Positions 10,262 to 56,749 of a DNA stretch of 64,000 nt are shown here, one piece after another. Below the pieces are notes generated by a model. The model searched no databases and was not told the origin of the DNA. It worked only from the letters and a program-made list of their open reading frames with translations. The stretch comes from Alphaproteobacteria bacterium (GTDB lineage: Bacteria > Pseudomonadota > Alphaproteobacteria > RF32 > CAG-239). The stretch is from NCBI GenBank assembly GCA_017445475.1, contig JAFSUB010000001.1, positions 14,834 to 78,833 on the forward strand, read 5' to 3'. The position numbers and the translations under genes were made by a program. How positions within the stretch are numbered: the stretch's first letter is position 1; every line of letters begins with the position of its first letter.

Positions 10262-11398
10262 TTATACAATATCCTTGTCTTGGGCTGCCAAATTGCGTCT
10301 TGTTAAAGCAAGAAGCATACCCATACCGAGTGCGGAGGCAAACAGCGATGAGCCGCCGTATGAAATAAACGGCAGTGTCATACCTTTTGTCGGAATAAGG
10401 TGCAAGGTTGAGGCCATATTGATAATGCTTTGCAATCCAAACAAGGCAGCCAAACCGGAAGAAGCATAAGAAATAAACAAGTTTTTTTCACCAAGCGAAA
10501 GCCTCATTGTGCGAACAACAACCGCGGCAAACAAGACAACAATCAGCAGACACAGCCAAACGCCGAATTCTTCGCCCGCAACCGCAAAAATAAAATCGGT
10601 GTGCGCATCAGGCAAATGCAATTTAACCGTGCCTTCTCCCGGACCGCGCCCCAGCAAATTTCCGTTTTCAAAAGCTTCCAACGATTTTTTAACCTGATAG
10701 CCGAGCTCACCGCCCGAAAACAAAAATTGGTGCACACGTTCGTGAACATGCGGCAGCGTAAAATAAACACCGATGCTGCCAAGCAAACCCAAAACACCCA
10801 AAACGGAAACAATCGTCATCGGCAGACCGGCTAAAAAGAGCTGAAAACCCCAAATAACACTCACGACAATTGTCATACCGAAATCAGGCTGAGCCAAAAG
10901 CATGGCGATTGTTAAAGCATATAATCCGATTGAAAACAAACTTCCCGGAAAATCGGCCGATTTTTTGCTTCCGTCCAAAAGCCACGCCGAAACAACGGCA
11001 AAGGTGGGTTTAAGAAACTCGGACGGTTGCAGTGTAAAGCCCAAAAGCCTGATCCAGCGTGATGAACCTTTTGTGGAATAGCCGGCAAACAGCGTTATAA
11101 ATGTCAAAACAAAAAAGAGCAGATACAACACAATCGATAAGCGCCGAATATTTTTAAGCCGCAGCATAGAAACCGAAAACAAAATAACAAGCGCAATCAA
11201 AATGAAAACAACTTGTTTTTTGATGAAATGATAGTCCGAAAAATGGTTTGTTCTCGCAACGGCAGGACTTGCTGAAAAAACAAGAAAGGCGCCGATGAAA
11301 ATTGTCAGCATTAAAAGCGCAAGCGTGATTTTATCAACCGTCCACCACCAGTTTGCAATTGCGCTTTTGTTTAATCTTGAAAACGTAACCATTGTCAT
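10262..11398 (-). CDS. ftsW: peptidoglycan polymerase/flippase FtsW (SEDS family)
   Basis: 10-TM SEDS protein with conserved LQPSEF and PFISYGGSS blocks. Confidence 0.9.
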   Translation of the reverse strand: MTMVTFSRLNKSAIANWWWTVDKITLALLMLTIFIGAFLVFSASPAVARTNHFSDYHFIKKQVVFILIALVILFSVSMLRLKNIRRLSIVLYLLFFVLTFITLFAGYSTKGSSRWIRLLGFTLQPSEFLKPTFAVVSAWLLDGSKKSADFPGSLFSIGLYALTIAMLLAQPDFGMTIVVSVIWGFQLFLAGLPMTIVSVLGVLGLLGSIGVYFTLPHVHERVHQFLFSGGELGYQVKKSLEAFENGNLLGRGPGEGTVKLHLPDAHTDFIFAVAGEEFGVWLCLLIVVLFAAVVVRTMRLSLGEKNLFISYASSGLAALFGLQSIINMASTLHLIPTKGMTLPFISYGGSSLFASALGMGMLLALTRRNLAAQDKDIV

Positions 11399-11401
11399 GT
11401 C

Positions 11402-12454
11402 CTAAAACTTAATCAAAGAGAGCAGTCCGAGGAAAGCACAAAAAAAGCCGACACTCCAAAAGACAAGCACAACCTTATTTTCGCGCCACCCGCATTGTTC
11501 GAAATGATGATGAATGGGCGCCATCTTAAAAAATCTTTTGCCGGTTTTTTTATACCAAAAAACCTGAATCATCACCGACAAAGTTTCCATCACAAACACA
11601 AACCCGACAATGGCAAGCAAAATTTCCTGCTTTAAGATAACGGCGGTTGTGCCTAAAAGAGCACCTAAGGCAAGCGAGCCGGTGTCTCCCATAAAAACTT
11701 TGGCTTTCGGTGCGTTGTAATATAAAAATCCCAAGCAAGCCCCCGCAACAGAAGCGGCCACAACGCATATTTCAGCGCTTCTTGCGATAAAGGGAAAGTG
11801 AAAACCCTGCGCAATCGGCGTGCCGACAATATAAGCCATAAGAGCAAAAAATGTGAAAGCCAAAACAAGCAAACCACTTGCCAAACCGTCTAAACCGTCG
11901 CTCAAATTAACGGCATTTGACGTTCCTGAAATCACAATCACGGCAAAAGGAATGTAAAGCCACGACAAATTCAAAACAAACCTGAAATAAGGCACATACA
12001 AAATGTTGCTCGAAGCGTTCGGTGTGGCTGCGGTAATAATTGTGGCCACAACAACAGCCGTTAAAAGCTGGAAAAAAAGTTTTGCCTTTGCCGTTAAAGC
12101 ATTCGGTGTTTGTTTTTTGACTTTAATGTAATCGTCGACGAACCCTGTTAAGCCGTAAACAAAAATCACAATCAGAGACACCCAGACAAAGTGATATTTA
12201 ATGTTTGCAAACAAAACAACGGACAACACAGCAGCTGCTAAAATGAGCAAACCGCCCATGGTCGGCGTGCCTTGTTTTGTGAGCAAATGTGACTGCGGCC
12301 CGTCCGAGCGGATAGGCTGGCCGCTGTGTTGCATCTTATGAAGCAAAAAAATAACGGGTTTTCCAAACAGCAAAACAACAAAAAGTGCACACAAAAAGGC
12401 CGCTAAAGCCCTCATAAACACACATCCGTCAGCGCAAAACAGTGATAACAACAT
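11402..12454 (-). CDS. mraY: phospho-N-acetylmuramoyl-pentapeptide transferase
   Basis: MraY motifs KxxTPTMGG, NAVNLSDGLDGLA, MGDTGSLALG. Confidence 0.9.
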   Translation of the reverse strand: MLLSLFCADGCVFMRALAAFLCALFVVLLFGKPVIFLLHKMQHSGQPIRSDGPQSHLLTKQGTPTMGGLLILAAAVLSVVLFANIKYHFVWVSLIVIFVYGLTGFVDDYIKVKKQTPNALTAKAKLFFQLLTAVVVATIITAATPNASSNILYVPYFRFVLNLSWLYIPFAVIVISGTSNAVNLSDGLDGLASGLLVLAFTFFALMAYIVGTPIAQGFHFPFIARSAEICVVAASVAGACLGFLYYNAPKAKVFMGDTGSLALGALLGTTAVILKQEILLAIVGFVFVMETLSVMIQVFWYKKTGKRFFKMAPIHHHFEQCGWRENKVVLVFWSVGFFCAFLGLLSLIKF

Positions 12455-12544
12455 TACAAATCTTCCTTGAAGTTCAAACCAATAATGAAAGAAGATAAGT
12501 CAAAATATTAAAATAAGTCTTAAAATCACCGCTTTTATTTTGAT

Positions 12545-13408
12545 TTAAGAAGCTATTTTTTTATTTTTGTTTGTGAGAATATTAAGAATTTTTGCAAGCT
12601 CTTCTTTTAGGTTTTGGCGCTCAAGAACAACATCAACCATGCCATGCGTTTGCAAATATTCGGCCTGCTGAAAATTTTCGGGCAGTTTTTCTCTGATGGT
12701 TTGCTCAATCACGCGCTGTCCGGCAAACCCGATTAGGCTGTCTTTTTCGGCAATATTCACATCTCCGAGCATGGCAAACGAAGCAGAAACACCACCTGTC
12801 GTCGGGTCTGCCAAAACCGAAATAAAAGGAATACCTTTTTCTTTGAGCAAATGAATGGCAGCAACGGTTCGTGCCATCTGCATCAGTGAAAGAATACCTT
12901 CCTGCATTCTTGCGCCGCCTGAAGATGCAATTGTTACAAACGGTGCTTTGTTTTTCAAAGAAAGTTCTGCGGCCTTAACAATGCCTTCGCCGACAACGGT
13001 TCCCATTGAGCCGCCCATAAATGTAAAATCCATAATGGCACAAACAACATCAACACCGCCGATTTTTCCGGTTGCAATTTTTAAGGCATCTTTGCTTTCG
13101 GCCAATTTCCGATTGGTTTTAAGCCGCTCTGTGTATTTTTGCGAATCGCGAAATTTAAGTGGATCATCTTGCATTAAAGGCAAATCAATAAGCGTATATT
13201 TTTCATCGTCAAAAAGCATTTTGAGGCGCTTGTCGACATAAAGCCGCAGATGATAACCGCATGAAGTGCAAACGTAAAGCGACTTTTTGAGCTCTTTTGA
13301 AAACAACATCTGATTACATTTCGGGCATTTCACCCACATATTGTTTGCAATCTCTTTGGGCGTTGTTTTTTGAATTTTCGGGCGGACAATATTGATAAAC
13401 CAATTCAT
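12545..13408 (-). CDS. accD: acetyl-CoA carboxylase carboxyltransferase beta subunit
   Basis: N-terminal Cys4 zinc finger CPKC...CTSC and carboxyltransferase domain (FMGGSMG). Confidence 0.9.
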   Translation of the reverse strand: MNWFINIVRPKIQKTTPKEIANNMWVKCPKCNQMLFSKELKKSLYVCTSCGYHLRLYVDKRLKMLFDDEKYTLIDLPLMQDDPLKFRDSQKYTERLKTNRKLAESKDALKIATGKIGGVDVVCAIMDFTFMGGSMGTVVGEGIVKAAELSLKNKAPFVTIASSGGARMQEGILSLMQMARTVAAIHLLKEKGIPFISVLADPTTGGVSASFAMLGDVNIAEKDSLIGFAGQRVIEQTIREKLPENFQQAEYLQTHGMVDVVLERQNLKEELAKILNILTNKNKKIAS

Positions 13409-13428
13409 TTTTTTTATCTCGCGTGCGG

Positions 13429-13860
13429 CTATTTTTTCTTGAAAGAAAACAGACTTTTAAACCTGTCTTTCATCATTTTTTTAGCGTCTTCACGTTCTTT
13501 GATTTTGATGTTTTCGAAGTTTTCCCGAAGGTTTGAAAAGTTTGCGCTCAACTTTTCATGTTCTTTGTGCAGTTTTTCATGCTCTTTGTTTAAGAATTTG
13601 TTGTCTTTTTTGTGCTGGCGTAATTTCGAGCGCAACGGTGCGTTTGAAACATATCCGTCGAGTCTGCCGATTAAATAGCCGACAACAAACAAAACAACAA
13701 TCAGCACGCTGGTTGAAATTTTAAGATGAAGATTAAAGGGTTTCAAAACAAATTCGGCAAAATCGCTGTTGATGGCGGCCAAAACAATCACAATCAGAAA
13801 AACGGGCAGTTCAATAAGTGTGCGGATAAAGTTCATTTTTTCCTCCGTTTCAAAGCTCAA
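13429..13860 (-). CDS. LapA-like (DUF1049) inner-membrane protein
   Basis: Two N-terminal TM helices plus charged C-terminus with KEHEKL repeats; immediately downstream of ihfB as is typical for lapA. Confidence 0.55.
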   Translation of the reverse strand: MSFETEEKMNFIRTLIELPVFLIVIVLAAINSDFAEFVLKPFNLHLKISTSVLIVVLFVVGYLIGRLDGYVSNAPLRSKLRQHKKDNKFLNKEHEKLHKEHEKLSANFSNLRENFENIKIKEREDAKKMMKDRFKSLFSFKKK

Positions 13861-14975: not shown

Positions 14976-16616
14976 ATGGATTTTGATGTTTTAAGCACCT
15001 TACTTTATATCAGCATCGTCGTGTGTGCCGTGCTTTGCGTTGCGCTCATTGATTTTAGAATTAAATTTTTGCGCCTCAAGCAAAAAAACTATTTTCTAAA
15101 CCGCGACCGCGAACGATATGCCGAAACAATTTATGCTTCAAAAGACGGTTATTTTGCTTTTGTATATCCTGATGAACGAATCAAAGATCCGCGTCAAACG
15201 GTTCGCGAGCGTTGCTCACGAAGGCTTGCCGTTATGCTTGATTTGAAAAACGGCCGCCAGTCTGATTTTGAAGATGTTTTGGAAACCTTATATAAAGATG
15301 ATGCGCGCAAACTTAAAAAATATCTTTCTTTAATGCAGGAAGAGGGAATCGCCTTTGAAGACACGTTTTTCATCAAAAGCGTCAAAAGGCAATGCCGCGT
15401 TTTCGGCAGCCGCATTCACGGGGCAGACGGCAATTTATATTGCGATATGCTGTGGTTTCGCGATTTAAGCGCCGAACTTTTGAAACTGGAAGAACTCGGC
15501 AAAGAACTGAAGGAAAAAAATGAGCGCATTAAAACATTTGAAGATTTGTTTGATAATCTGGGATTTCCGGTTTATCTTCGAGATGAAAAACTTCAAATTG
15601 TCGCTTTCAACAAAAAATATGCCGAATTTTCAAAAAGAGGCAATCAAGAGGCGCAAAGCACGCGCGAAAAAGCAGAATGGGAAAAAGCGGCAGATGAGCT
15701 TTCAAAGGCGGCCATACAAACCAACAAAGCGCAAAAGAAAAATGTGCAAATCGTTTTCAGGGGCGATGTGCGGCGGTTTGAAATTACGGAAGCGCCTTTT
15801 CACAGTGCGGACAGGCTTGATGACATCGGCACGGTGGGCACAATGATTGATATGACGGAACTTGACACCGTGAAACGAACTTTTAAGGTTCACCAAAACG
15901 CCCATCTTGAAGTTTTGTCGTATCTCGGAACGGCATTTGCCATATTCAACCTTAAATCAGAGCTGATTTTTTATAACAAATCGTTTGCGCAGATGTGGCA
16001 TTTGAGCGCGGAAGAGCTGGATAAAAAGCTGTCTTACGCTTCGTTTTTGAACTTAATTTACAGCAAAAGGCTCATCCCTGAGGTCAGAGATTTTAAGGGC
16101 TATAAGCTTCAGGAAGAAAAACTTTTTTCAACTCTGATTGCCCCAAAAGAAAATCTTGTTCATCTGCCCGATGGGCGAACAATCAGGCGCTTTGTGGCAC
16201 AACACCCGAACGGGCTTATTTTTGCTTATGAAGACGTTTCCGACCGTTTGGAAGCTCAAAGAACAATTCACGAGCTGATGACGGTTCAGCAAAACATTTT
16301 GGACGGTCTTGACGAAGCGGTGTTAATTTTCGGTGCCGATCAAAGGCTCAAATATTATAATCCGAGTTATGTTAAGTTGTTTTCGGCAGACAGGTTGAAA
16401 TTGCAAAATTTGCCTGTTGCCGCCGAGGTTTTTGATATGCAAAAATCCCATCTGGAAAATTCGGAAAATTGGGAAGCCTTAAAAAGCCAGATGTTAAGGC
16501 ATATTTTCGAACTTTGCTCAAGCTTTAAACTTGAATACGGCAACGATTGCCTTCTTGAAGTTAAACCCTTTATTTTAGCAGACGAATCGGTTATGGTGTG
16601 CTATATTAAAAGATGA
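14976..16616 (+). CDS. membrane-anchored PAS-like domain protein (no kinase domain)
   Basis: N-terminal TM helix and repeated PAS-like segments; no H-box or HATPase motifs. Confidence 0.4.
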   Translation: MDFDVLSTLLYISIVVCAVLCVALIDFRIKFLRLKQKNYFLNRDRERYAETIYASKDGYFAFVYPDERIKDPRQTVRERCSRRLAVMLDLKNGRQSDFEDVLETLYKDDARKLKKYLSLMQEEGIAFEDTFFIKSVKRQCRVFGSRIHGADGNLYCDMLWFRDLSAELLKLEELGKELKEKNERIKTFEDLFDNLGFPVYLRDEKLQIVAFNKKYAEFSKRGNQEAQSTREKAEWEKAADELSKAAIQTNKAQKKNVQIVFRGDVRRFEITEAPFHSADRLDDIGTVGTMIDMTELDTVKRTFKVHQNAHLEVLSYLGTAFAIFNLKSELIFYNKSFAQMWHLSAEELDKKLSYASFLNLIYSKRLIPEVRDFKGYKLQEEKLFSTLIAPKENLVHLPDGRTIRRFVAQHPNGLIFAYEDVSDRLEAQRTIHELMTVQQNILDGLDEAVLIFGADQRLKYYNPSYVKLFSADRLKLQNLPVAAEVFDMQKSHLENSENWEALKSQMLRHIFELCSSFKLEYGNDCLLEVKPFILADESVMVCYIKR

Positions 16617-17500
16617 AACCGAAGGGGGCTATTTTGAAAGAAGGCGAGCAAACAGCACAAAAAAGACAAGAGGAAAGCTTGAAAAAAGCCAAAGAAAAAG
16701 GCTTTGGAACACGTGGGCGCCTAAGCCTTAAACACAATGCTTTGGAATCAGATCTTTATCGGCAGGAAAAAGAAAAGAAAAACAAAAAAAAGCTCAAGAT
16801 GAAAGAAAAGAAACTGCCGGTAGGGCTTGCAAAAATGCGTTCGAAAATTCGGGAAGTTTATGATGAGGAAGACGAAGCTGAAGACTATTTAGCACACATC
16901 AAACAGCCCAAAGATGAAGATTTAACGCTTTTTGAAGCTTTAACGGAATCCGAAAAAAAGGCCTTAAAGCAAAAAGAGGCGACAGATACGGTCAGAAAAC
17001 AGCAAGATGTCGGCAAAATGGAGGCGCTGACCGTCGCGCACAATTTTGCCAAAGAGGCGGGTGAAAAAGGATTAAACAAAAAGATGGTTGCCTCGGAAAT
17101 GCAGAATGCACTTTTTGAACCGCAAAACACGCAAGAAAGGGTTGTTGAAAAAACAGTTTCCAAAAAACTCGGAATTCGCGGCAAAATAGAGCAGGGGAAA
17201 ATTATTCAAGCGGCGCGCGGCATTAAAAAAATTGAGCAATTCGGCACCAAAAAATCAATAAAGAATCTTGATTCAAAAGACATTATCAAAGTGGGCGAAG
17301 ATAAAATCGACGAGCAAAAACTGGCCAAATTGATTCTCGAAAAATCGGGGCAGAATGTGCAAAAACGCAAGACTCATCTGAAAACAAACGACGATGTGCC
17401 GCTCAAACATCTCAAGGTGAAAACACCAAGCGACAAGCAAAAAGAAGAAAAGAAAAACGAACAACCTCTTTTCAAAGAAAGCAATAATTTCGGCAGATAA
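16613..17500 (+). CDS. hypothetical K/E-rich low-complexity protein
   Basis: 295-aa ORF, very lysine/glutamate-rich; translationally coupled to the upstream gene. Confidence 0.35.
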   Translation: MKPKGAILKEGEQTAQKRQEESLKKAKEKGFGTRGRLSLKHNALESDLYRQEKEKKNKKKLKMKEKKLPVGLAKMRSKIREVYDEEDEAEDYLAHIKQPKDEDLTLFEALTESEKKALKQKEATDTVRKQQDVGKMEALTVAHNFAKEAGEKGLNKKMVASEMQNALFEPQNTQERVVEKTVSKKLGIRGKIEQGKIIQAARGIKKIEQFGTKKSIKNLDSKDIIKVGEDKIDEQKLAKLILEKSGQNVQKRKTHLKTNDDVPLKHLKVKTPSDKQKEEKKNEQPLFKESNNFGR

Positions 17501-20746: not shown

Positions 20747-21856
20747 ATGGCATATAAAGATTATAAGGCAGATGTTGTAAACACAGATGTTTATCTGCTT
20801 GCAAAAGCGCTCGGGTTTGTTTTGTCTCGCACGCCGAAAAATGAAAACGATGTTAATCTTGTTCTTGAAGACATTACAAAATATATTCAAAATCACGAAA
20901 TAACCGAAAAAGAAGCGGCCACTTTGAGCGATGACCAAAAAACGCTTTTAGACGATATTCTAAAACCCAAAGAAGAAACACAGGAAAAATCGGTTTCAAG
21001 AAATGAAACCTTAAATGTGGGGCTCGCGCCTTCTGAAGAGCCGGCAATTGACAACACTTGGATTGAAGAAGAGCGCAAGCTTTGGGAAGAATTTGCCGCT
21101 CAAGTTAATCTGTTTTATGATGAAGAAGACAAAGACAACACCTCCAAAACATCGCTTAAATTTGCTTTAAGCCAAGACGGTGTGTCGCAAGGCGATTTAG
21201 TTTTTATAAGCCGAAATCATTGTCAGGTTGATGCAGATTCAAAATTTGTGATATATCAAGGGCTTGTTGAAACTGCCTTGAAAAAGGACTTGTCATTAAC
21301 TTTTGACCAGTCTTTAGATGAAAAACAACAGTTGATGCTCTTGGCTGCCGTTTTGAAAAATGAGAATCGTTATGAAAACGGCGATAAACTGGAAGTTATC
21401 AATGCGCCGAAAATAGATGAGAATACCTTAAAGTCGGAAGCTTTCAAGGGGCTTGATAAAGACGTGCAGGAAATTTTGAAAGAACAAATCAAACGTCAAA
21501 ATAAGGCACAAAAAGCAGAAAACAAAGAGCAAACGCAGCATGAGAAGAATTTGGAGAAAATCGAAGAGCTGAAAGAAAAAATCTTAAGGGAAAAAGATAG
21601 CGATAAACGCTATAAGCTTCGTCAAAAACAGGCGGCTCTTCAATATCAAAATCTTTCTGATGAGCGCAAAGCGCAAAGAGATAAAGAGCTTTTAGAACGC
21701 GACAGGATTGCCGCTGCGCGTGCCGGCATAACAGAGCCCTATCAAACCAAAAACAAAGGCGGTCAGGATTGGACCGTTCAAGAAGATGGAAACGCGCGCT
21801 ATTCGAAAGAATATCTTGATGTTCTGAAACGAAAATTCGCCAAAGAGAACGATTAA
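20747..21856 (+). CDS. hypothetical charged (K/E/D-rich) protein
   Basis: 369-aa ORF with coiled-coil-like charged C-terminal half; no recognisable domain. Confidence 0.4.
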   Translation: MAYKDYKADVVNTDVYLLAKALGFVLSRTPKNENDVNLVLEDITKYIQNHEITEKEAATLSDDQKTLLDDILKPKEETQEKSVSRNETLNVGLAPSEEPAIDNTWIEEERKLWEEFAAQVNLFYDEEDKDNTSKTSLKFALSQDGVSQGDLVFISRNHCQVDADSKFVIYQGLVETALKKDLSLTFDQSLDEKQQLMLLAAVLKNENRYENGDKLEVINAPKIDENTLKSEAFKGLDKDVQEILKEQIKRQNKAQKAENKEQTQHEKNLEKIEELKEKILREKDSDKRYKLRQKQAALQYQNLSDERKAQRDKELLERDRIAAARAGITEPYQTKNKGGQDWTVQEDGNARYSKEYLDVLKRKFAKEND

Positions 21857-29479: not shown

Positions 29480-30430
29480 TTATTTTGATAAATTAAACAC
29501 GCGAATCGGGACAATAGCCTTCCCCTCAACGCGAACAAGCGCCGTCAAACAATCTTTTTCAAAAGCGGCCAACACCTCATCTTGGCGTTCTGAAACGCCG
29601 TAAGTTGTGGCTGATAACCTTTGTCCAAGCCTTAATTTGAAAGCATCTTCTGCCGAAACGGCCAGCGCCGCGATGTCGCGCAGCACGGTCTGAACTGGCA
29701 TCAGAAAACCTTGTTCGCTCTTTTCATACACCATATTTTTTAAATTTTCCAGCAAAATCGTATCTGAAATCGAAAAATTTGCGCAACGCGTTCTTCTTAA
29801 AGCCGTTAAATGCCCGTAGCTTTGAAGTTTTAGGGCAATATCTTTGCCCAGCGTGCGTATATATGTTCCCTTTGAGCAGCAAACCTTAAATTGAAACGAA
29901 TCGTCTGAAACCTGTTTTAAAAAATCAAGGCTGTATATTTCCACTTCGCGTTCGGCAATTTCAAAATTTTTTCCCTCTCTTGCAAGTTTGTATGCACGCA
30001 CACCCCCGATTTTGATGGCGCTGTAAGCCGGCGGTGTTTGTTTGATTTTTCCGACAAACGCGGGCAGAATGCGCAAAAGCTCATCTTTTGAGGGCACACG
30101 CCCGCCTGTGTGGACAGGCTCGCCTTGTAAATCGTCCGTTGTGGTGTCAAAGCCAAATTTTAAGACAAACTCATATTCTTTTTTGCCGTCTGTCACATAA
30201 GCAATCAACTTTGTTGCCTCGCCGAACGCAATCGGCAACACACCCGTTGCAAAAGGGTCAAGCGTTCCCGTATGGCCGTTTTTGTTGGCATCTAAAAGTC
30301 GGCGCGTGATGTTGACAACCTCGGTTGATCCCATGCCTTGGGGCTTATCAATAACAATCCAACCGTTGATGTTTTTGTGTTTTGTTCGTTTCATAAAAGC
30401 GTTTATAAGCCAAATGCCCCCTTTTTGCAA
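29480..30430 (-). CDS. truB: tRNA pseudouridine(55) synthase
   Basis: TruB catalytic motif [18 protein letters not shown] plus PUA-like C-terminus. Confidence 0.9.
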
Positions 30431-30575
30431 TAAATTATTTTTTTGATAAAAAGATTGTTTTTTTGAGTTTTGCTGACAAAAAATGCCAAAAAAAACAAAA
30501 AAGTGCTTGATTGTAGCGTTTGTTTTTGCTATAACGGAATCAGGGACAAAACTTTGATTTGGAAGGACTTAAGAT

Positions 30576-31094
30576 ATGACAATCAAATCATTTGATGAAA
30601 TGTATGCACAACAGGGCGAAAGGCTTGCTGAAGACTTTGGTAAAGACAAAACTGAAGCCATTTTACATGATGCAAGAAAAATATATGAAACGCTTAAAAC
30701 GCCGGAAGCTATTGATGAGTTTGCCAAATCTGGTTATGAAAAGAGACAAGAAATGGTTAAGGGATTATCCGGTAAACATTTCGTTGGTATGGGACTTGCT
30801 CATAAATTAGCCCGTGATTACGCAGAATATGTTCAAAAAGAGCAACCTCAACCCGTTTTACAAAAGCCTCAAGCAAGTGTTTATGCCGATAAGGTCAGAT
30901 CGAAGATAGAACGAAACGAAAAACATATGCAAAAAGCGCCGAGCTTAAAGGGGATATCAGGGGCTGTTGTTGCCGATGAAATTGCTAAAAGGCTAATTTC
31001 AGGCGAAGAAAATCGTGTTATCACGCCGGAAGTCGGCAAAGAGTTATCCGATTCCATTAAAAAGTCTTGGGCACAAAACAAGCAAAACGTTTAA
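30576..31094 (+). CDS. hypothetical protein
   Basis: 172-aa charged soluble ORF with RBS GGAAGGA; no recognisable domain. Confidence 0.4.
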   Translation: MTIKSFDEMYAQQGERLAEDFGKDKTEAILHDARKIYETLKTPEAIDEFAKSGYEKRQEMVKGLSGKHFVGMGLAHKLARDYAEYVQKEQPQPVLQKPQASVYADKVRSKIERNEKHMQKAPSLKGISGAVVADEIAKRLISGEENRVITPEVGKELSDSIKKSWAQNKQNV

Positions 31095-31278
31095 ATGATG
31101 CAAAAAACGCCTCATCTTTTAAGCTGGGGCGTTTTTTGCGTTTTTTTAATAAAAAGACTTGCAAATTTAAAAAGATGGGGGTATAAGGCATTCACGATGT
31201 TTTTTGTAAAACATCGCAAGAAAAGAAGCCGGAGACTTCTTGCACAAAAAGAAAATTATTGTAAAACATATCAAATAA

Positions 31279-31355
31279 CGGGACGTAGTTCAGCCTGGTA
31301 GAGCGCTTGCATGGGGTGCAAGAAGCCGGAGGTTCAAATCCTCTCGTCCCGACCA
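31279..31355 (+). tRNA. tRNA-Pro (anticodon GGG)
   Basis: Cloverleaf: acceptor CGGGACG/CGTCCCG, U8, D-arm GTTC..GAGC, anticodon stem CTTGC/GCAAG, loop AUGGGGU, T-arm GGAGGTTCAAATCCTCT, discriminator A plus encoded CCA; CGG..CGACCA ends typical of bacterial tRNA-Pro. Confidence 0.85.
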
Positions 31356-31363
31356 TAAAACAC

Positions 31364-31397
31364 AAAGCCTGCCCTTGGGGCGGGCTTTGTGTTTTAT
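31364..31397 (+). terminator. intrinsic terminator after tRNA-Pro
   Basis: AAAGCCTGCCC/GGGCGGGCTTT hairpin followed by TGTGTTTT. Confidence 0.5.
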
Positions 31398-31411
31398 TAT
31401 AACGAAGTGAT

Positions 31412-31427
31412 GGGATTTGAACCTCCG
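31412..31427. repeat. inverted partial copy of tRNA-Pro T-arm
   Basis: Minus strand reads CGGAGGTTCAAATCCCA, a 15/15 match to the tRNA T-arm at 31327-31341; not part of a complete tRNA. Confidence 0.4.
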
Positions 31428-31539
31428 AAAAAGGAGGTTCACAACCAGCGAAAGCGAGACTTTAAGTATCGCGGTCGTTTAAAAAAAACGATGAGCGCCT
31501 GTGCGACCGAGCTTTTTTTATAAAAAGCGAAGGCCAAAA

Positions 31540-31554
31540 CTCTCGTCCCGACCA
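31540..31554. repeat. direct repeat of tRNA-Pro 3' end (att-like scar)
   Basis: CTCTCGTCCCGACCA is identical to tRNA positions 31341-31355 and sits 185 bp downstream, again followed by a terminator hairpin. Confidence 0.55.
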
Positions 31555-31556
31555 AT

Positions 31557-31588
31557 AAAAAAGCCACCGTTTGGTGGCTTTTTTGTTG
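31557..31588 (+). terminator. intrinsic terminator
   Basis: AAGCCACC/GGTGGCTT hairpin followed by TTTTTGTTGG. Confidence 0.5.
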
Positions 31589-31632
31589 GTAAGACAGGAA
31601 TCTCCGGCTTTTTGCAAAGAGCCGAAAGAAAG

Positions 31633-33204: not shown

Positions 33205-33741
33205 CTAAATTTCAAGCGCATATATATCTTTAACGCGCCAATCCTCACCGTTTGGCACCAAAACATAAATGATTCGTCCTTGACACAATCCAAACCAATT
33301 GCCATCACAGGTGCTGTCTGTATGAATTTCAACCAAATCTGCCGCAATCGGCTTAATTTTTGCAATTTTAAAGCTCATTTTGGTCGGGCGATTTAAGGAT
33401 TCGTCTGTCATAAAAATAAACTTCGGAAGCTTTGATTCGCGACAGCCGGCATAGTCCGGATTTAAGGTGCATTTAACGGCAAATTCAACGGCGCAAGCCA
33501 TCTGGCTGTCTAAAGAACACTTGTTTGAAAGCTTGTCTGCCTGATAATCGTATGTTTTATCACCAAAAACTTTTGCCGCAATAACAGGTGGTTCGTCTGA
33601 ATTTACAATCGGTGCTGAAACCTTTGTTTTCCATGCATATAAACCAACTAAAATAACAATCATTAACACGAACGCAACAATTTTTTTAATCATTTCGCTT
33701 TTTATCTCCTCTTGTTTTAATTGATTGATAACCTTTTTCAC
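33205..33741 (-). CDS. hypothetical Cys-rich exported/membrane-anchored protein
   Basis: Signal-anchor IVAFVLMIVILVGLYAW; seven Cys in the mature part. Confidence 0.4.
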   Translation of the reverse strand: MKKVINQLKQEEIKSEMIKKIVAFVLMIVILVGLYAWKTKVSAPIVNSDEPPVIAAKVFGDKTYDYQADKLSNKCSLDSQMACAVEFAVKCTLNPDYAGCRESKLPKFIFMTDESLNRPTKMSFKIAKIKPIAADLVEIHTDSTCDGNWFGLCQGRIIYVLVPNGEDWRVKDIYALEI

Positions 33742-37025: not shown

Positions 37026-37271
37026 TCAGTTGGAACGGCAATCATTTTTTCTTTCGTCAACAAGCCTTATTTCGATGGATTTGTGGAAATATTTCAAAGC
37101 CTCTTCAAAATTTATCCAGCCGACGCGATCTAAGCCGAGCTCAAGTCTTTCATACATGGCGGGACTTGTTTTAAGCGCCCTTGAGCAGGCGGCCATGCTT
37201 GTGTTGTTTCTTCGGCGCTCTTCAAAAAGAATACGGCCGAGCATTTTTTTGATTTGTTTTTGAATTGTCAT
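37026..37271 (-). CDS. small XRE-like HTH protein (cassette copy A)
   Basis: 81 aa; shares near-identical first ~70 aa with the ORF at 54204..54437; HTH-like LGRILFEERRRNNTSMAACSRALKTSPAMYERLELG. Confidence 0.6.
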   Translation of the reverse strand: MTIQKQIKKMLGRILFEERRRNNTSMAACSRALKTSPAMYERLELGLDRVGWINFEEALKYFHKSIEIRLVDERKNDCRSN

Positions 37272-37299
37272 AAGTAACTCCTGTTTTGTTCATGTTTCT

Positions 37300-37500
37300 A
37301 AAAAAAAACCGTTTTGAAAAAATCTCAAAACGGGGAGCTAACAAACTGTTACAGCACAGATGAGCTTATTCGCGCAAAGCCTTATATCGCCCACTCCCCA
37401 ATGTGGAGTTAACTGTAAGATGTTTGTTAAACACCGCAACCAATCGGTTGCAACGCTATTATGGGAAGATTTTTCTTAAATGTAAAGCAAAAATTTGAAG
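37300..37500 (-). ncRNA. conserved structured leader/sRNA candidate ending in intrinsic terminator (copy A)
   Basis: ~200 nt conserved with 54470..54660; hairpins ACTCC-N7-GGAGT and GCAACC-AATC-GGTTGC (copy B has compensatory GCAATC-AACC-GATTGC); minus-strand terminator CCGTTTTGA...TCAAAACGG plus 9 U, 29 nt before the XRE start. Confidence 0.35.
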
Positions 37501-37547
37501 ATGCTCTGATTTTTGCTTTGCAACAAAAGCATAACGGTTGTTGTGCA
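37497..37547. repeat. dispersed ~50-bp repeat (left flank of cargo A)
   Basis: GAAGATGCTCTGATTTTTGCTTTGCAACAAAAGCATAACGGTTGTTG recurs at 39030..39080; related copies at 54674..54711 and 57462..57493. Confidence 0.5.
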
Positions 37548-37635: not shown

Positions 37636-38835
37636 TTATATCAGCAGCCAATCCAAAACATTTATTTGTTTAATTCCGTTGTGCGATGTAACGGGGATCG
37701 GATCCATTGTCAGTAAATATTTCGGATTATGGTCATTAATCAGTTGCAGAGGTCTTAATTCGCGTTCCAATACATTTTGTTCAACGGCCGTCCATGCAAC
37801 CTGATAATGTTCAACATCAGTTCCTTGCAAGGCCGTAAAATCAACCTCGTATTCACCGACTTTACCCACAAACACTTTATATCCGCGGCGTATCAGTTCA
37901 AGAAACACAATATTTTCCAAAATATGGCCGTAATCTCGGCTTGTTTGTCCGACAAGCAAATTTCTTAAAGCTATGTCGGCGATATAATATTTTTCACCGG
38001 TTTTCAAATATTCTTTACCCTTAATATCATAGCGAGGGACAGAATATAGAAAATAACAATCTTTAAGCGATGAAATATAACTATCTACCGTGTGTGTGGA
38101 TATGTCCTGACCGTCAGATGACATTGTATCGGCAATTTTTTTAATGGAAACCAAATTACCGATGTTGTCGCTCATAAATTTTGCAACGCGTTTTAAGGCT
38201 GAAGTGTCCGTCAAGCCTCGTCTGTCCGCAATATCTTTAACAATAATTGTGTTGTAAAGGGCATCCAAATAACCTGAAATGTTTTTTGAATCGCCGTTGA
38301 GTAATAACGTAAAAGGAAATGAACTGTCCGTTATATATTTTTGAAACAAATCCGACTTGCTTAAATTTTCAAAAGCTTGACGATATTCTTTGAGGGAAAA
38401 AGGTTGCATTCCGATTTCTATATAACGGCCGGAAAGCAACGTTGCCAGCTCTCCCGAGAGCAAATAAGAATTAGACCCCGTTAAATATAAGTCAACATTT
38501 TTTTTAACAAACAATGCGTCCACGGTTTTTTGAAAATCCGGAACATATTGAATTTCATCTAAGAGGACATAATTCATCTTGTCTGCAATAAGGCGTTCTT
38601 TGATATGTTGATACAATTTTTTATGATTCGTTAAATCTTGATATTTTTCGTCCTCAGATTCTTCAAAATTTATGCGAATGATTTGGTTTTGCTCGACACC
38701 GCTGTTAAGCAAATATGCCTCAAACAAATCAAAAAGGGTTGATTTTCCCGAGCGGCGAATGCCGGTTATAATTTTAATAATGGGTTTGTTTTTAAGGCTT
38801 ATCAGCCTGTCAATATATTCTTGGCGCTTTATCAT
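37636..38835 (-). CDS. AAA+ ATPase of the DUF4143 (AAA_14) family
   Basis: Walker A GIRRSGKST, Walker B VLLDEIQ, C-terminal DUF4143-like region; flanked by direct repeats. Confidence 0.75.
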   Translation of the reverse strand: MIKRQEYIDRLISLKNKPIIKIITGIRRSGKSTLFDLFEAYLLNSGVEQNQIIRINFEESEDEKYQDLTNHKKLYQHIKERLIADKMNYVLLDEIQYVPDFQKTVDALFVKKNVDLYLTGSNSYLLSGELATLLSGRYIEIGMQPFSLKEYRQAFENLSKSDLFQKYITDSSFPFTLLLNGDSKNISGYLDALYNTIIVKDIADRRGLTDTSALKRVAKFMSDNIGNLVSIKKIADTMSSDGQDISTHTVDSYISSLKDCYFLYSVPRYDIKGKEYLKTGEKYYIADIALRNLLVGQTSRDYGHILENIVFLELIRRGYKVFVGKVGEYEVDFTALQGTDVEHYQVAWTAVEQNVLERELRPLQLINDHNPKYLLTMDPIPVTSHNGIKQINVLDWLLI

Positions 38836-39029
38836 GAAACCTCCTTATTTAAAGATAATAATCAAAAAATTTGAAAAGTAAAACTAAAAGTTTATAAAAA
38901 TAATAAAAATTAGAAATTATTTTCAAATTATGGTCAACTCTTCGGACGGTGCGTCAGCGCATCAAGGGAACTCACCTTTGAAGCGTCGCACCTTTGGTGC
39001 ATATACGCTTCTGCTTTGTTATATAAAAT

Positions 39030-39080
39030 AGAAGATGCTCTGATTTTTGCTTTGCAAAAAAGGCATAACGGTTGTTGCGG
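39030..39080. repeat. dispersed ~50-bp repeat (right flank of cargo A)
   Basis: Near-identical to 37497..37547. Confidence 0.5.
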
Positions 39081-42366: not shown

Positions 42367-44172
42367 CTAATTGTTATCTTCCAAATCAAGCTTAATATGA
42401 AGCTCTTTTAATTGCTCATCACTGACTGTGTTCGGTGCCTGCATCAAGAGATCTTGTGCCTTTCCGTTTAAGGGGAAGATAATCACATCGCGGATAATCG
42501 GCTCGTCTAAAAGCAACATAACCGCGCGGTCAATCCCCGGAGCACAGCCTGCGTGCGGCGGTGCGCCGTAATGAAACGCGTTGATCATGCCGCCGAATTT
42601 GTTGTCAACCACATCGTGTCCGTAGCCCGCAATTTCAAAGGCTTTATACATGATTTCCGGCTTGTGGTTGCGCACCGCGCCCGAGGCGAGTTCTGCGCCG
42701 TTGCAAACCAAATCATATTGATAAGCCAAAATCTCAAGCGGATTCTTATTCAAAAGTGCATCCATACCGCCTTGCGGCATTGAAAACGGATTGTGCGAAA
42801 ATTCAACGGCGCCCGTTTCTTCATTTTGCTCATAAAACGGAAAATCAACAATCCAGCAGAACCTGAAAGCATCTTTTTCAAACAAGTCAAGTTCTCCTCC
42901 GAGTTTGTTTCTGACAACACCCGCAAATTTGCTGACGGAATCTTCTTTGCCGGCCATAAACAAAACGGCGTCTCCGTCTTTCATTTCAAAGAATTTTTTA
43001 ATTTCATCAAGCTTTTGCGCATCAAAAAAGCGCGACAAACCTTTTGCACCGCTTGCGCCAAAAGCAATATATGCCATGCCGCCCATATTTTGCTCTTTTG
43101 CGAAAGCGTCAAACTTATCAAAAAATGAGCGCGGCTTTTCGGCAGCATTCGGCGCAACAATTGCGCGCACCTTTTGGCCCTCTTGAACCATCCGGTCATA
43201 TAAGCCAAAGCCGGAATTGCCGAACAAAGGTGTTGCATCAACAATAACAAGCGGATTTCTTAAATCGGGCTTATCTGTGCCGTATTTGAGCATAGACTCC
43301 TTAAAGGGTATGCGAATAAACGGCGGCTCGGAAACTTTTCTTCCGTTTGAAAATTCCTTGAAAAGTGTGCCCATCGTGTGTTCCAAAACGGCAAACACAT
43401 CTTCTTGGGTGGCAAAGCTCATCTCCAAATCAAGCTGATAAAATTCGCCGGGGCTTCGGTCGGCACGCGGATCTTCGTCTCTGAAACAAGGCGCAATTTG
43501 AAAATAGCGGTCAAAGCCCGAAACCATCAACAGCTGCTTAAATTGTTGCGGCGCTTGAGGCAGGGCATAAAATTTTCCGGGATTAAGGCGAGAGGGAACC
43601 AAAAAGTCGCGTGCACCTTCGGGTGATGAGGCCGTTAAAATCGGCGTTTGATATTCGGTAAAACCTTGGGCGAGCATCAACTCTCTGATGCGATGTATCA
43701 CCTTTGAGCGCAAAACCATATTGGAATGAATGCGCTCTTTTCTTAAGTCCAGAAAACGATATTTAAGGCGCAGTTCTTCAGGAGAATCATCTTCAAAAGC
43801 AACCTGAAACGGCAACACATCCGCCTCGGAATGCACCACCAGTTTTTTTGCCTTAATTTCAATTTCGCCGGTGGGCATATTTTTATTGACGCTTTGGCGC
43901 ACAATGACTTCGCCTTCAACGCCGATGACGCTTTCAACACGCAAATTTTGAATTTTTTCAAACAAATCGGAAGAAGAATCGAACACGCATTGGGTTATGC
44001 CGTAATGGTCGCGCAAATCAACAAAACAAAGGTTGCCGAGGTTGCGCTTTCGATGAATCCAGCCGGCAATCAAAACCGTTTTGCCGACATCTTCGCGGCA
44101 AAGCTGGCCGCATGTGTGTGTCCGATATTCGTTCATTTTTTTCCTCATAAAAGATGGTTGTTTTTCACTCAT
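42367..44172 (-). CDS. aspS: aspartyl-tRNA synthetase
   Basis: 601 aa; N-terminal OB, class II motifs with canonical arginines (FRDE...R, GLDR), bacterial GAD insertion domain. Confidence 0.95.
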
Positions 44173-48901: not shown

Positions 48902-49432
48902 ATGAAAAAGAGGATTGTGCTGTTTTTTGTGCTTATTTTGCTTTTGTGGCTTGTCAGTTGTCCCATTATTGATGTTGCACGCACAAAAAACTGTCCGCTG
49001 CCTGAAACAAAACAAACCATTTCCGAAAATGAAACGGATATGTTTTTGGAGCATTTTCGCGAATATGTTGCCCGCGGCCTTAACAAAGAAGTGCCTGAAG
49101 AATTTTATACGGACGAGCAAAAGCCGCACGAAAGATTGCCCTTTTTTGTGCGCGCATGGTTCAACAAAAAGTGTATTGCCCCCGAGCGCTTTTATTATGT
49201 GGAGCAAAGGTTGCGCGCTATTGTTAAAATTATGGATGCAAAAGAAAATTTTGAGCGGTTGCAAAACCACTTCAAAGAACAAGATGCGTTTGAAGGCAGG
49301 GAAAAAGAAGCTCATGACAGCGCGTTTGAAAATTTGCAAAAAGAGGCCCTCAACACGGAATTTATTTCAAACGAAGAATTTGAGCTTGTCAGAAAAAGAG
49401 AAGCAAAAATCAGAGCTTTGCTGGGACAATAA
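48902..49432 (+). CDS. hypothetical lipoprotein
   Basis: Signal peptide with lipobox LVSC. Confidence 0.4.
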   Translation: MKKRIVLFFVLILLLWLVSCPIIDVARTKNCPLPETKQTISENETDMFLEHFREYVARGLNKEVPEEFYTDEQKPHERLPFFVRAWFNKKCIAPERFYYVEQRLRAIVKIMDAKENFERLQNHFKEQDAFEGREKEAHDSAFENLQKEALNTEFISNEEFELVRKREAKIRALLGQ

Positions 49433-49434
49433 GA

Positions 49435-50325
49435 ATGGATATTTCAGAACACATATACACCTGCGCGGCATTTAAGGTAAATGCCGAAAAACTTACAGAA
49501 CTCAAGGCATTTTTCAGCGATTTTCCAATTAAAGATGCGCAAGATTGGCCGATGTGCGCAACAAAGAAAAACGGCGAACCGCGATATGTGCGTGTTCAGG
49601 TTCAAGGCGACCGGTTCGGTTTTGAAAAAGCGCTGTATTTGGCGTTTGAGTGTGAAGCCGGCAATGCGAAATATATGATTGCTCAAAAGCTTAAATATGA
49701 TGATGCTTTGCAAATAGAACTTGATTGTATCAGACGCGTTGATAAAAAAGAAAAAACAACCAGTCGATTTGTTTTTCACTTAATGGAACAATACAGCCGT
49801 TTTTTGAAACAATTTGCTTTAACAAGCACTGCTCAAAAAGAAGACACATACCTTAGGCTTGAAGCCCATTCCGGTGTGGCAGACGGTTTTCAAACAAACG
49901 GTGGTTATGTGTGGGCGACGCATCGGTTTGATTTTGAAAATGAAGATGAACTTCTGCGCACGCGTGAAGCTTTCAAGGAGTATGCCTTAAAAAACGGTGT
50001 TGAAATTGAGGAAAAAGACCTTCGCTTGTTTCAATATCCGTGTCATTTTGCGGCTTTTCGCACAAACAAAAAAATTGACGGGCAAAATCTCGGCAAAGCC
50101 TTTTTGCTTCAATATTCATGGCAGGGCAAAATGACGGCAGCCATGTCGGAGAAGTGTGAAATTGCGCGTTATGAACGCACGTTTTATAAACAAAACAAAT
50201 TGGAGGCGGAAAAAGAACTTTCGCCACGTTTTTTGAAAATGATGAAAAAATATAACAAATCGCAAAACCCGACAAAGAACATATTTATGCGCCTTTTTGA
50301 AAACAAAAAACTGCGTGTGCGTTAA
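49435..50325 (+). CDS. hypothetical protein
   Basis: 296-aa ORF translationally coupled to the preceding lipoprotein gene; no recognisable domain. Confidence 0.4.
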   Translation: MDISEHIYTCAAFKVNAEKLTELKAFFSDFPIKDAQDWPMCATKKNGEPRYVRVQVQGDRFGFEKALYLAFECEAGNAKYMIAQKLKYDDALQIELDCIRRVDKKEKTTSRFVFHLMEQYSRFLKQFALTSTAQKEDTYLRLEAHSGVADGFQTNGGYVWATHRFDFENEDELLRTREAFKEYALKNGVEIEEKDLRLFQYPCHFAAFRTNKKIDGQNLGKAFLLQYSWQGKMTAAMSEKCEIARYERTFYKQNKLEAEKELSPRFLKMMKKYNKSQNPTKNIFMRLFENKKLRVR

Positions 50326-54203: not shown

Positions 54204-54437
54204 TTATTTTTGTTTTAGCTCGTCAACAAGCCTTATTTCGATGGATTTATGGAAATACTTCAAGGCCTCTTCAAACTTTTTCCAGCCGACGCGATCTAAG
54301 CCGAGCTCAATTCTTTCATAGGTGATGGGTTTTATTTTAAGCGCCTTGCAGCAGGCGGCGGTGTATGTGTTGTTTCTTTGGCGCTCTTCAAAAAGAATAC
54401 GGCCGAGCATTTTTTTAATTTGTTTTTGAATCGTCAT
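54204..54437 (-). CDS. small XRE-like HTH protein (cassette copy B)
   Basis: 77 aa, paralog of 37026..37271 (MTIQKQIKKMLGRILFEER...); C-terminus diverges at the junction with the core gene. Confidence 0.6.
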   Translation of the reverse strand: MTIQKQIKKMLGRILFEERQRNNTYTAACCKALKIKPITYERIELGLDRVGWKKFEEALKYFHKSIEIRLVDELKQK

Positions 54438-54469
54438 TGTTTTTAACTCCTGTTTTGTTCATGTTTCTC

Positions 54470-54660
54470 AAAAAAAACCGTTTTGGAAAAAAATCTCAAA
54501 ACGGGGAGCTCAAAAACTGTCCTAATACAGATTTCCTTATTCGCGCAAAGCCTTATTTCGGAAACTCCCCAATGCGGAGTTGAAATTAGGAAGATGTTTT
54601 TGAAACACCGCAATCAACCGATTGCAAGGTTATTATGGAAGATTTTGAAGAAATGTAAAG
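54470..54660 (-). ncRNA. conserved structured leader/sRNA candidate ending in intrinsic terminator (copy B)
   Basis: Same element as 37300..37500: AACTCC-N7-GGAGTT hairpin, GCAATC-AACC-GATTGC hairpin, terminator CCGTTTTGG...CAAAACGG plus U-run just upstream of the XRE start. Confidence 0.35.
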
Positions 54661-54673
54661 AAAAAAAATTGAA

Positions 54674-54711
54674 GATGCCTTGAAGTTTTTGAGCGCGCTC
54701 AAAAAATAGGC
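54674..54711. repeat. dispersed repeat (left flank of cargo B)
   Basis: GATGCCTTGAAGTTTT (16/16 with 57478..57493), palindrome GAGCGCGCTC, then GGCATGACGGGTT; second partial copy GCCATGACGGGTTGTG at 54758..54773. Confidence 0.45.
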
Positions 54712-56009: not shown

Positions 56010-56023
56010 GATTTTTTACCTTT

Positions 56024-56731
56024 TTAGGGAATTTGTTTAACCTTACGGTCATCTCTGCAAGTCATGATTTTTATCGAACCATCTTGAAAAACCAGTGCAG
56101 TGCAATCATCCATACTCCATCCTTGTATGTTTTTTTGTTTCAGTTTGTCATTTATCCTTTGTTTCTCATCTTCAGTCAGCCAGTCGTAATGTGGGACACC
56201 AAATCCTTTAATAAATCCCAAACCTCTAACCAAATCGAGTTGCTCAATATTTTCTATATCATCCATATTATCGTAATATTCAAACCAGCAAATGGCGCCT
56301 GCAGAGATACCGGCTAAAACAATTCCCTTTTGGTAGGCTTCGTATAAGATATCGCCAAGTTTATATTTTTGCCAAATGTTCAGCATGGTTGTTGTATCTC
56401 CGCCACCGACATAAATAATATCACTTGAAAATATTTTGTTTCTAATTTCTTGTATGGAAATTGATTCCTCTACCAAATTTAAAGGTTCAACGGAATGGCA
56501 CCCCAAACGTCCCTTAAAATGATTCTCTACAACTTCCAGATAACTTTTTTTATCACCTGAAGCCGTGCCGACAAAAAGCATTTTAGGATGCTTTTTTCCC
56601 GTTGCATCAACAATAAAACGATCAATCAGAGTTGTTTCCACGTCTGTTTGCACAGAAGTACCGTCCGGCAAAACCTTTATTCTTCCTATTTCCCCTCCAC
56701 CGACAGCTATAATCATTTTTTTCATTTTCAT
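56024..56731 (-). CDS. S51-family peptidase (peptidase E / cyanophycinase-like)
   Basis: IYVGGGDTTTML, nucleophile block LAGISAGAICW, His in VPHYDW; 15-bp gap to the aaRS-like gene. Confidence 0.7.
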   Translation of the reverse strand: MKMKKMIIAVGGGEIGRIKVLPDGTSVQTDVETTLIDRFIVDATGKKHPKMLFVGTASGDKKSYLEVVENHFKGRLGCHSVEPLNLVEESISIQEIRNKIFSSDIIYVGGGDTTTMLNIWQKYKLGDILYEAYQKGIVLAGISAGAICWFEYYDNMDDIENIEQLDLVRGLGFIKGFGVPHYDWLTEDEKQRINDKLKQKNIQGWSMDDCTALVFQDGSIKIMTCRDDRKVKQIP

Positions 56732-56749
56732 TGCCTTTAATTATTGTTT

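Follow-up and report, generated by a model that had tools for sequence, protein, structure and literature searches.

Does a tRNA gene that is followed by a second copy of its own 3' end mark the place where a genomic island once integrated? This question is raised by a 64,000-nucleotide stretch of contig JAFSUB010000001.1 from an Alphaproteobacteria bacterium (assembly GCA_017445475.1), hereafter the window, whose single tRNA gene, tRNA-Pro(GGG), lies at positions 31279-31355 on the plus strand. An earlier note on this DNA had interpreted the duplicated tRNA end as the attachment (att) sites, attL and attR, of an integrase-borne island that has decayed or been excised, or as the product of successive integration events. 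We give about an even chance to a different reading, in which the repeat bounds a small insertion module that encodes no integrase, carries att-like repeats, marks a recombination hot spot and is mobilised in trans.

The tRNA gene is intact, with its CCA encoded, and was identified concordantly by ARAGORN and by Rfam (59.1 bits for the tRNA model). Its final 15 nucleotides (nt), CTCTCGTCCCGACCA, occur exactly twice in the 64 kb, at 31341-31355 and at 31540-31554. With two mismatches allowed, about 0.02 matches are expected by chance in a sequence of this length, and two copies appeared in 0 of 100 shuffles. The two copies are exact and start 199 nt apart. The gap between them measures 184 nt, and therefore the spacing of 185 bp reported in the earlier note is correct. 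An inverted 15-nt copy of the T-arm, also described there, is found between the repeats as an exact match to CGGAGGTTCAAATCC at 31413-31427, and corresponds to the 5' strand of the T-stem, the T-loop and the next two bases. A long hairpin stands behind each tRNA end, again as had been noticed: T1 (31355-31397, 20-nt arms, 95% complementary) directly 3' of the first, and T2 (31551-31590, 18-nt arms, 94% complementary) 3' of the second. Judging from their predicted folds, both look like bidirectional intrinsic terminators, with A and T tracts on their flanks. A simple terminator scan flags neither T1 nor T2, because these A and T tracts pair into extended stems.

The interior between the two tRNA ends has no coding capacity and is composed of several distinct elements, all listed here for the plus strand. 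Hairpin A (31413-31446) is formed by the inverted T-arm, a GAAAAA loop and a direct partial copy of the T-arm, GGAGGTTCACAACC, which matches at 12 of 14 positions (31433-31446). The conserved core (31441-31512) opens with the motif ACAACCAGCGAAAG and continues as a three-way junction. An A+T hairpin, AGCTTTTTTTATAAAAAGC, was recognised by repeat analysis and folding at 31510-31528, and its motif TTTTTTTATAAAAAG recurs at the edges of a gene cassette upstream of the tRNA (orf172, described below). The second tRNA-Pro 3' copy (31530-31554) has a degenerate T-stem and T-loop (GAAGGCCAAAA) ahead of the exact final 15 nt, and in the related locus L081 the exact stretch of the second copy extends over 22 nt, from the T-loop to the CCA. 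These features are best explained if the 15-nt repeat is a distal, attR-like copy of the tRNA-Pro 3' end that originally ran from the T-loop to the CCA, about 22-30 nt, and if a non-coding module of ~200 bp separates the intact tRNA-Pro from its former downstream flank. A more specific proposal, that the core splits the T-loop of the second copy, is weakened: the distal copy retains a degenerate 5' strand of the T-stem, and two partial copies fit equally well. Behind T2 lies a truncated further unit (31591-31628), composed of a short spacer and an inverted tRNA fragment and reaching up to the stop codon of the downstream gene for a glycosyltransferase-deacetylase fusion, GT/PIG-L. The fragment (31598-31616) matches tRNA positions 31317-31335 at 17 of 19 nt, where 0 matches are expected by chance, and this arrangement is consistent with the successive integration events that the earlier note had considered.

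Comparison with relatives, whose loci were gathered through homologues of GT/PIG-L, reveals that the site is variable. The fetched loci share the gene order yacG-rng-maf-dksA-pilin-orf162-GT/PIG-L ... truB-rpsO-pnp-murJ and diverge in the stretch between GT/PIG-L and truB. An empty site is present in L062 (87% protein identity) and in the JGI contigs L079 and L082, where a terminator and then an ADP-ribosylglycohydrolase (ARH) gene come directly after the tRNA, and only a single tRNA end exists. L059 (97% protein identity) carries an insert of ~0.9 kb placed precisely at the tRNA end. It comprises a module ~80% identical to that of the window, a degenerate second copy AGGTCAAATCCTCTTCAACCCGACCA, a terminator and a GNAT gene, and closes with a third, degenerate tRNA end (..GAGACCA). 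Immediately after this end, homology to L062 restarts at AATACATAA, so that collinearity of the two loci resumes with the terminal 5 nt of a tRNA end. Similarly, L080 and L081 align collinearly (85.7% identity) as far as the end of their second copy and are unrelated past that point. The window has the module and lacks both the GNAT and the ARH gene. Its homology with L059 and L062 restarts at 31629, the GT/PIG-L stop codon, and the right-hand breakpoint in the window itself thus falls after T2 and not at a tRNA-end copy. Empty and occupied alleles coexist among these relatives, and therefore the arrangement is not an invariant feature of the lineage. The earlier interpretation of an attL/attR-like repeat pair stands insofar as the site varies and has breakpoints at tRNA-end copies, whereas its extension to a classical decayed island is not supported. 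Beyond these close relatives, TruB-anchored loci from 46 related species have tRNA-Pro next to truB in no case, hence offer no orthologous site, and yielded taxonomy together with some modules captured by chance. More distant GT/PIG-L homologues (P0004, P0006, P0007 and P0011) reside in other contexts with no tRNA.

The module is not confined to this locus. Metagenomes scanned with a 53-nt query, the 3' part of the window tRNA-Pro, yielded six contigs, three of which represent empty sites. L080 and L081 carry a homologous module, 71-81% identical to those of the window and L059, in contexts unlike that of the window (rpmB ... rpsU/serS and rpmB ... thrS, respectively), and L084, in an ihfA-merR ... 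DUF2147-like context, combines this architecture with another interior and contains a 95-nt direct repeat with a period of 228 nt. Modules of homologous sequence or equivalent architecture are accordingly found 3' of an identical tRNA-Pro in four genomic contexts. An nhmmer profile built from the four homologous Pro modules only also matches 3' of tRNA-Leu(TAA) in L049 (E = 3e-11) and its close relative L025, and 3' of tRNA-Met(CAT) in L023 (E = 7e-10). At tRNA-Leu, tRNA-Met and tRNA-Ala the flanking hairpin corresponds to the T-arm of the respective tRNA. The distal tRNA-end copy is likewise cognate in both Leu loci, and the Met unit has no distal copy. Behind tRNA-Ala(GGC) in L023, two tandem units of ~250 bp, both of which finish with a 16-nt exact copy of the Ala 3' end, are followed by a truncated third.

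A common architecture emerges from these examples. The tRNA is followed by T1, the inverted cognate T-arm and a short loop (GAAAAA at Pro and Met); then by a direct copy of the T-stem 5' strand with TTCA, the motif CTACMAGCGARAG and the core (at Pro, Leu and Met); and finally by a degenerate T-stem, an exact T-loop-to-CCA stretch of the cognate tRNA, and T2. Arrays usually end in a truncated unit of terminator and inverted T-arm, as at 31591-31628 of the window. The terminators show signs of exchange as well. T2 of the window is 90% identical to the terminator after the L049 tRNA-Leu and 85% identical to T1 of L081, and T2 of L059 matches T1 of L080 at 85%. The Pro and Leu loci share these terminator types in swapped order, and therefore the terminators belong to the module family. 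Almost all pairs of modules share 76-81% identity, irrespective of whether their hosts are distant or near-conspecific (window and L059, with flanks 93-99% identical). This star-like pattern of divergence shows signs of exchange more than of vertical descent.

The structure of the core was assessed by RNAalifold, pair counts and a covariance model. RNAalifold places stem P1 at 31448-31450/31496-31498 (GCG/CGC), P2 at 31454-31472 and P3 at 31474-31492. In an alignment of six cores (four Pro, two Leu), from which the structure was derived and on which it was also tested, 93.6% of the cells are paired and 8 of 16 pairs are altered on both sides. None of 500 shuffles equals this result, and slid controls are 17-44% paired. 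P3 is represented by four unrelated sequences across the four Pro modules, yet each forms a hairpin of 5-7 bp. The G-U pairs in the core favour the plus strand. A covariance model made from the cores scores 31412-31512 at 105 bits, and every match to 0.93 Mb of related DNA at E < 0.01 adjoins a tRNA. Among 4227 families of Rfam 15 the module has no match even at E = 10; the tRNA alone passes, and the remaining Rfam matches in the window are terminator look-alikes far below threshold. The intervening DNA is not simply decayed, as had been suggested, and is instead a member of a conserved module family with covarying stems at several tRNAs.

How might such units reach their sites? We propose that a unit enters through site-specific recombination in the segment of the tRNA gene that runs from the T-loop to the 3' end, with a crossover in the T-loop. 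The incoming unit would bring a replacement tRNA 3' end and a terminator, and therefore the tRNA would stay intact; in the window, T1 from the module would now terminate the tRNA. Because neither the unit nor the window encodes a recombinase, the enzyme is proposed to act in trans. It might work on a folded single strand, in which case hairpin A could serve as a folded mimic of the target T-arm, and the structured core may also participate. Repeated events would shift older units downstream, where deletions would trim them, and the window would have been left with one complete unit and a second, truncated one, and without the ARH gene. More broadly, we consider it possible, at somewhat less than an even chance, that the units are previously undescribed miniature (~0.2 kb), non-coding, tRNA-specific insertion modules of uncultured gut Alphaproteobacteria, or else tRNA-linked structured RNAs; the literature on miniature or integrase-less elements at tRNA sites yielded no matching description.

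Several observations weigh against mobilisation of such a module. Pfam finds no integrase or transposase in the ~55 open reading frames (ORFs) of the window, and phmmer searches with five phage integrases give no match in the window or in ~0.93 Mb of relatives' loci. The absence of an integrase from the 64 kb, which had been noted earlier, is borne out by both searches. The module is also absent from IMG/VR, the INPHARED phages and the PLSDB plasmids, which hold no full-length, integrase-bearing relative, and a parent integrative element was found neither in these collections nor in the fetched loci. Covarying hairpins are unexpected for a double-stranded attP arm and suggest a function as single-stranded RNA or DNA, and an inverted copy of the cognate T-arm is foreign to classical att sites. 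The duplicated stretch spans the whole terminator in several loci, which local tandem duplication would produce likewise. Finally, the comparison sequences are all metagenome contigs, and the core alignment holds only six of them.

Integrases that target tRNA-Pro do exist elsewhere, as a search suggested by the earlier note confirmed. The 25-nt tRNA-Pro end occurs in 11 IMG/VR contigs, and 9 of these contain only a 3' fragment that begins in the anticodon stem-loop. The adjacent ORF is a Phage_integrase in 5 of 5 contigs tested, and therefore the tRNA-Pro end is a real att target in other hosts. Such sites belong to the anticodon-loop type and bear no relation to the module. Three further IMG/VR matches, to a 17-nt pattern from the core, were rejected as chance: the covariance model is silent at the matched positions, and no tRNA is present.

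The covariation also bears on a second explanation, that the module is a structured non-coding RNA gene linked to the tRNA. The gene would be transcribed in the direction of the tRNA, through read-through of T1 or from its own promoter, and would end at T2. The tRNA-end repeat would be part of the gene and no recombination scar, and the T-arm and 3'-end copies would be functional, for example as a mimic or decoy of the upper half of the tRNA. Such a gene would account for the conserved junction bases and the covariation in P2 and P3, for G-U pairs that favour the plus strand, for a terminator-like hairpin at the module's own 3' end, and for a hairpin that matches each cognate tRNA. In the folds of L059, L080 and L081, moreover, the 5' flank is paired to the distal acceptor strand and the CCA stays unpaired. 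However, an inverted repeat pairs automatically, and the structure was tested on the same six sequences from which it came. No convincing promoter is seen from T1 to hairpin A, and Rfam offers no corresponding family. L059 and the Leu modules have a decayed distal tRNA-end copy, and close relatives that lack the module show no visible substitute. Tandem and truncated units, as well as breakpoints at tRNA-end copies, would be unexpected for a simple RNA gene. We therefore regard this explanation as rather unlikely.

A third possibility is a local replication error, in which template switching at the terminator palindrome created an inverted triplication that was later remodelled by insertions and deletions. 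This process corresponds to tandem inversion duplication (TID) or to origin-dependent inverted-repeat amplification (ODIRA), the latter model having been described previously (PMC4689423). The order of elements, direct copy, T1 palindrome, inverted copy, short loop and direct copy, with palindromic junctions, is what this process would leave. The inverted copy runs degenerately into the acceptor strand in L059, L080 and L081, and the two terminators of L049, of L084 and of the tRNA-Ala array in L023 are nearly identical to each other. Nonetheless, the third copy in the series is interrupted by a core of ~95 nt that is common to different tRNAs, and triplication leaves the occurrence of this homologous core and of the terminators at tRNA-Pro, tRNA-Leu and tRNA-Met unexplained. 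It also fails to explain the star-like divergence among near-conspecific hosts and the ~0.9-kb GNAT insert that is closed by a third tRNA end, and in the window the segment that joins T1 to the inverted T-arm lacks complementarity to the tRNA end. A replication error is thus improbable as the source of these structures.

The remaining alternative returns to the classical island, of which an attL/attR remnant would persist after nearly everything else had decayed or been excised, with the GT/PIG-L fusion, the exported protein and the pilin left over. Such islands classically leave a direct repeat of a tRNA 3' end, phage integrases that use the tRNA-Pro end exist, and the flank is variable. Conversely, the supposed remnants fall outside the repeat pair. 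The genes for GT/PIG-L, the 162-amino-acid (aa) protein and the pilin are syntenic in relatives whose site is empty, and therefore they are conserved core neighbours and not island remnants. Full-length GT/PIG-L homologues extend down to 49% identity in metagenome-assembled genomes (MAGs) of Alphaproteobacteria. A check of composition in 31.6-34.5 kb came out nearly the same way. GC content is flat throughout 31-35 kb, and the GT/PIG-L and pilin genes are ordinary in GC, in GC at third codon positions (GC3) and in codon usage, which disagrees with an origin as remnants, whereas GC3 of the 162-aa ORF is somewhat low (0.368, versus a window mean of 0.436 with a standard deviation of 0.048). In addition, the interior is conserved at 71-81% in four other contexts and has covarying stems, and therefore is not neutral debris. 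We consider a decayed classical island very improbable.

Other candidates can be dismissed briefly: a hammerhead ribozyme was considered on account of GAAA, GUC and (C)UGAUGAG-like strings around three stems, but these core bases, the CUGAUGA-like element among them, are not conserved between modules and no Rfam match results; a permuted tmRNA scores 11.6 bits with tmRNA_permuted against a threshold of 47, a match caused by the T-arm; a decayed tRNA on either strand appears only as ARAGORN noise at low threshold; and a miniature inverted-repeat transposable element does not agree with one copy in 64 kb, with confident covariance-model matches in 0.93 Mb that all lie beside tRNAs, or with core ends that have no terminal inverted repeats, the inverted pieces being tRNA-derived.

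The region 5' of the tRNA contains related elements. A putative promoter (CTTGCA, 18 nt, TATAAG; 31157-31190, plus strand) is suggested by sequence reading and by alignment with L061, in which the matching box is located ~14 nt 5' of the tRNA. In the window, a stretch of ~85 nt separates this promoter-like box from the tRNA and includes a plus-strand hairpin (31216-31245) made of tRNA-derived pieces, AAGAAGCCGGAG in direct orientation (tRNA 31320-31331) and CTTCTTGCAC inverted (31316-31325). This hairpin is kept in L059, L062, L080, L081 and L083. In L080 (oriented 3149-3187) and L081 (oriented 2563-2601), a copy of the 5' half of tRNA-Pro, from position 1 to the anticodon loop and with the leader included, is found ~250 nt 5' of the real tRNA-Pro. 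It forms a mirror-image mini-insertion of ~250 bp at the anticodon loop, the 3' part of which is the hairpin-bearing stretch that is also upstream of the window tRNA (31195-31278). Logan contigs of SRR12529377 stop at 31308, within the tRNA, and at 31565, within T2, and thus do not include the module; these ends could reflect tRNA k-mers common to several species, palindromic k-mers or population heterogeneity.

The window as a whole is chromosomal core DNA of an uncultured alphaproteobacterium of gut or rumen type. Pfam identifies the dcw cluster, ftsH, murJ, pnp-rpsO-truB and dksA-maf-rng-yacG, along with rnpA-yidC, aspS, a CcrM-like methylase and lepB-rnc-era. Among species-representative genomes, the nearest TruB homologues belong to Alphaproteobacteria MAGs, at 56-73% identity, and near-identical contigs are present in metagenome assemblies from ENA and Logan. 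Near the site, the gene that varies and stands out in composition is orf172 (30576-31094), which is 5' of the tRNA, is absent from L059, has low GC3 (0.31) and gives no Pfam match. Its cassette (30455-31140) is bounded by a 17-nt direct repeat, TTTTTTTRATAAAAAGA, and the gene sits in a tract of ~930 bp (30273-31203) that is ~99.4% identical to L062, with flanks at 88-93%. By these signs orf172 looks like a recently exchanged cassette. Across L005-L050, the loci of the 46 related species, truB-rpsO-pnp is kept while tRNA-Pro, orf172 and the GT/PIG-L block are absent within 10 kb upstream of truB, and therefore the truB/tRNA-Pro junction (window 29480-31278) is a lineage-specific rearrangement point. 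On the other side of the tRNA, the ARH gene in the interval between tRNA-Pro and GT/PIG-L is intact in L062 (9554-10363) and L082, carries an in-frame stop in L059 (7371-8263) and a stop at codon 2 in L079 (near 7260), and is deleted from the window between 31590 and 31633. This gene appears to be undergoing loss in these lineages.

Additional repeats and atypical segments were observed farther from the tRNA. A direct repeat of ~470 bp with 85% identity occurs at 37054-37515 and 54220-54691, 17 kb apart. A 53-bp direct repeat (92%; 37491-37543 and 39025-39077) brackets an AAA_14/DUF4143 gene (37636-38835), which L062 lacks between yacG and rpmH-rnpA, and therefore this gene looks like another small inserted cassette. 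A low-GC patch at 54807-57343 (GC 0.35, GC3 0.31-0.32) is atypical for the window and encodes Peptidase_S51 and AAA_28 proteins and a 400-aa protein resembling class II aminoacyl-tRNA synthetases (weak tRNA-synt_2), the last distinct from aspS at 42367-44172. ORFs with no Pfam match encode proteins of 876 aa (60235-62865), 369 aa (20747-21856) and 295 aa (16613-17500), an adjacent pair of 186 and 296 aa (48915-50325), and a protein of 162-178 aa next to GT/PIG-L (33205-33741). Among the other fetched loci, L086 contains an orphan partial unit (8500-8640, minus strand), in which a tRNA-like end, ..ACACCGCCA, is followed by a terminator, a T-arm hairpin made of inverted and direct copies (GGGATTTGAACCCTC/GAGGGTTTGA) and CTAC. 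It adjoins an island (genes 8813-13599) with an ABC-3C conflict system (DUF2326, MC6/MC7 and HNH-CTD10), Bro-N and ankyrin-repeat proteins, and the fetched stretch includes no tRNA and no integrase.

Partial tRNA copies are routinely taken as scars of large islands, whose limits they serve to define. The scar examined here encloses just ~185 bp, and this segment shows conservation and structure of its own and is matched to each tRNA. If the units move, they would constitute an unusually small class of site-specific elements and would shape the gene content next to tRNAs, for example the ADP-ribosylglycohydrolase and GNAT genes, or the ABC-3C defence island in L086. If the units are RNAs, they would represent a new tRNA-linked RNA family. 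In both cases, software that detects islands by pairing tRNA fragments would be misled by loci of this kind.

The role of partial tRNA copies as attR sites is established (PMC9897764). Like the attL/attR pairs of tyrosine integrases, specifically those of the T-loop sublocation class, the module lies between an intact tRNA and a partial 3' copy of it, shares exact identity from the T-loop to the CCA (22 nt in L081), and is present or absent among relatives with breakpoints at the copies. Its nested or tandem copies recall accretion at tRNA sites. Unlike tyrosine-integrase elements, however, the bounded segment is ~185 bp and non-coding, with no integrase there or in the 64 kb; its interior holds an inverted cognate T-arm and a covarying three-way junction; and the duplication sometimes takes in the whole terminator. 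The att-like flanks, lack of an integrase and arrays at one target are reminiscent of cis-mobilizable elements (CIMEs), which are flanked by att sites and have no recombination or transfer genes of their own. Known CIMEs span kilobases and originate from a recognisable integrative and conjugative element or integrative and mobilizable element able to mobilise them, whereas the unit is ~0.2 kb and no parent element or helper for it was found in IMG/VR, the phages, the plasmids or the fetched loci.

Two systems with folded DNA offer further parallels. Folded single-stranded recombination sites are exemplified by integron attC and by the attP hairpin of CTX phage that is used by XerCD. By way of likeness only, the module similarly has a conserved structure and a variable sequence, and hairpin A resembles a copy of the double-stranded T-arm target. 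It differs in having neither an integron integrase nor a dif site and in targeting a tRNA gene, and single-strand intermediates would be hypothetical. The products of TID/ODIRA resemble the module in their direct, inverted, direct order and in palindromic junctions, here at the terminator hairpin, but do not account for an interior and terminators that are common to different tRNA loci or for polymorphism between near-identical hosts. Compared with known inserts at tRNA sites, the module is unusual in combining a length of ~185 bp and the lack of a recombinase with an inverted cognate T-arm, a covarying core and occurrence at several tRNAs.

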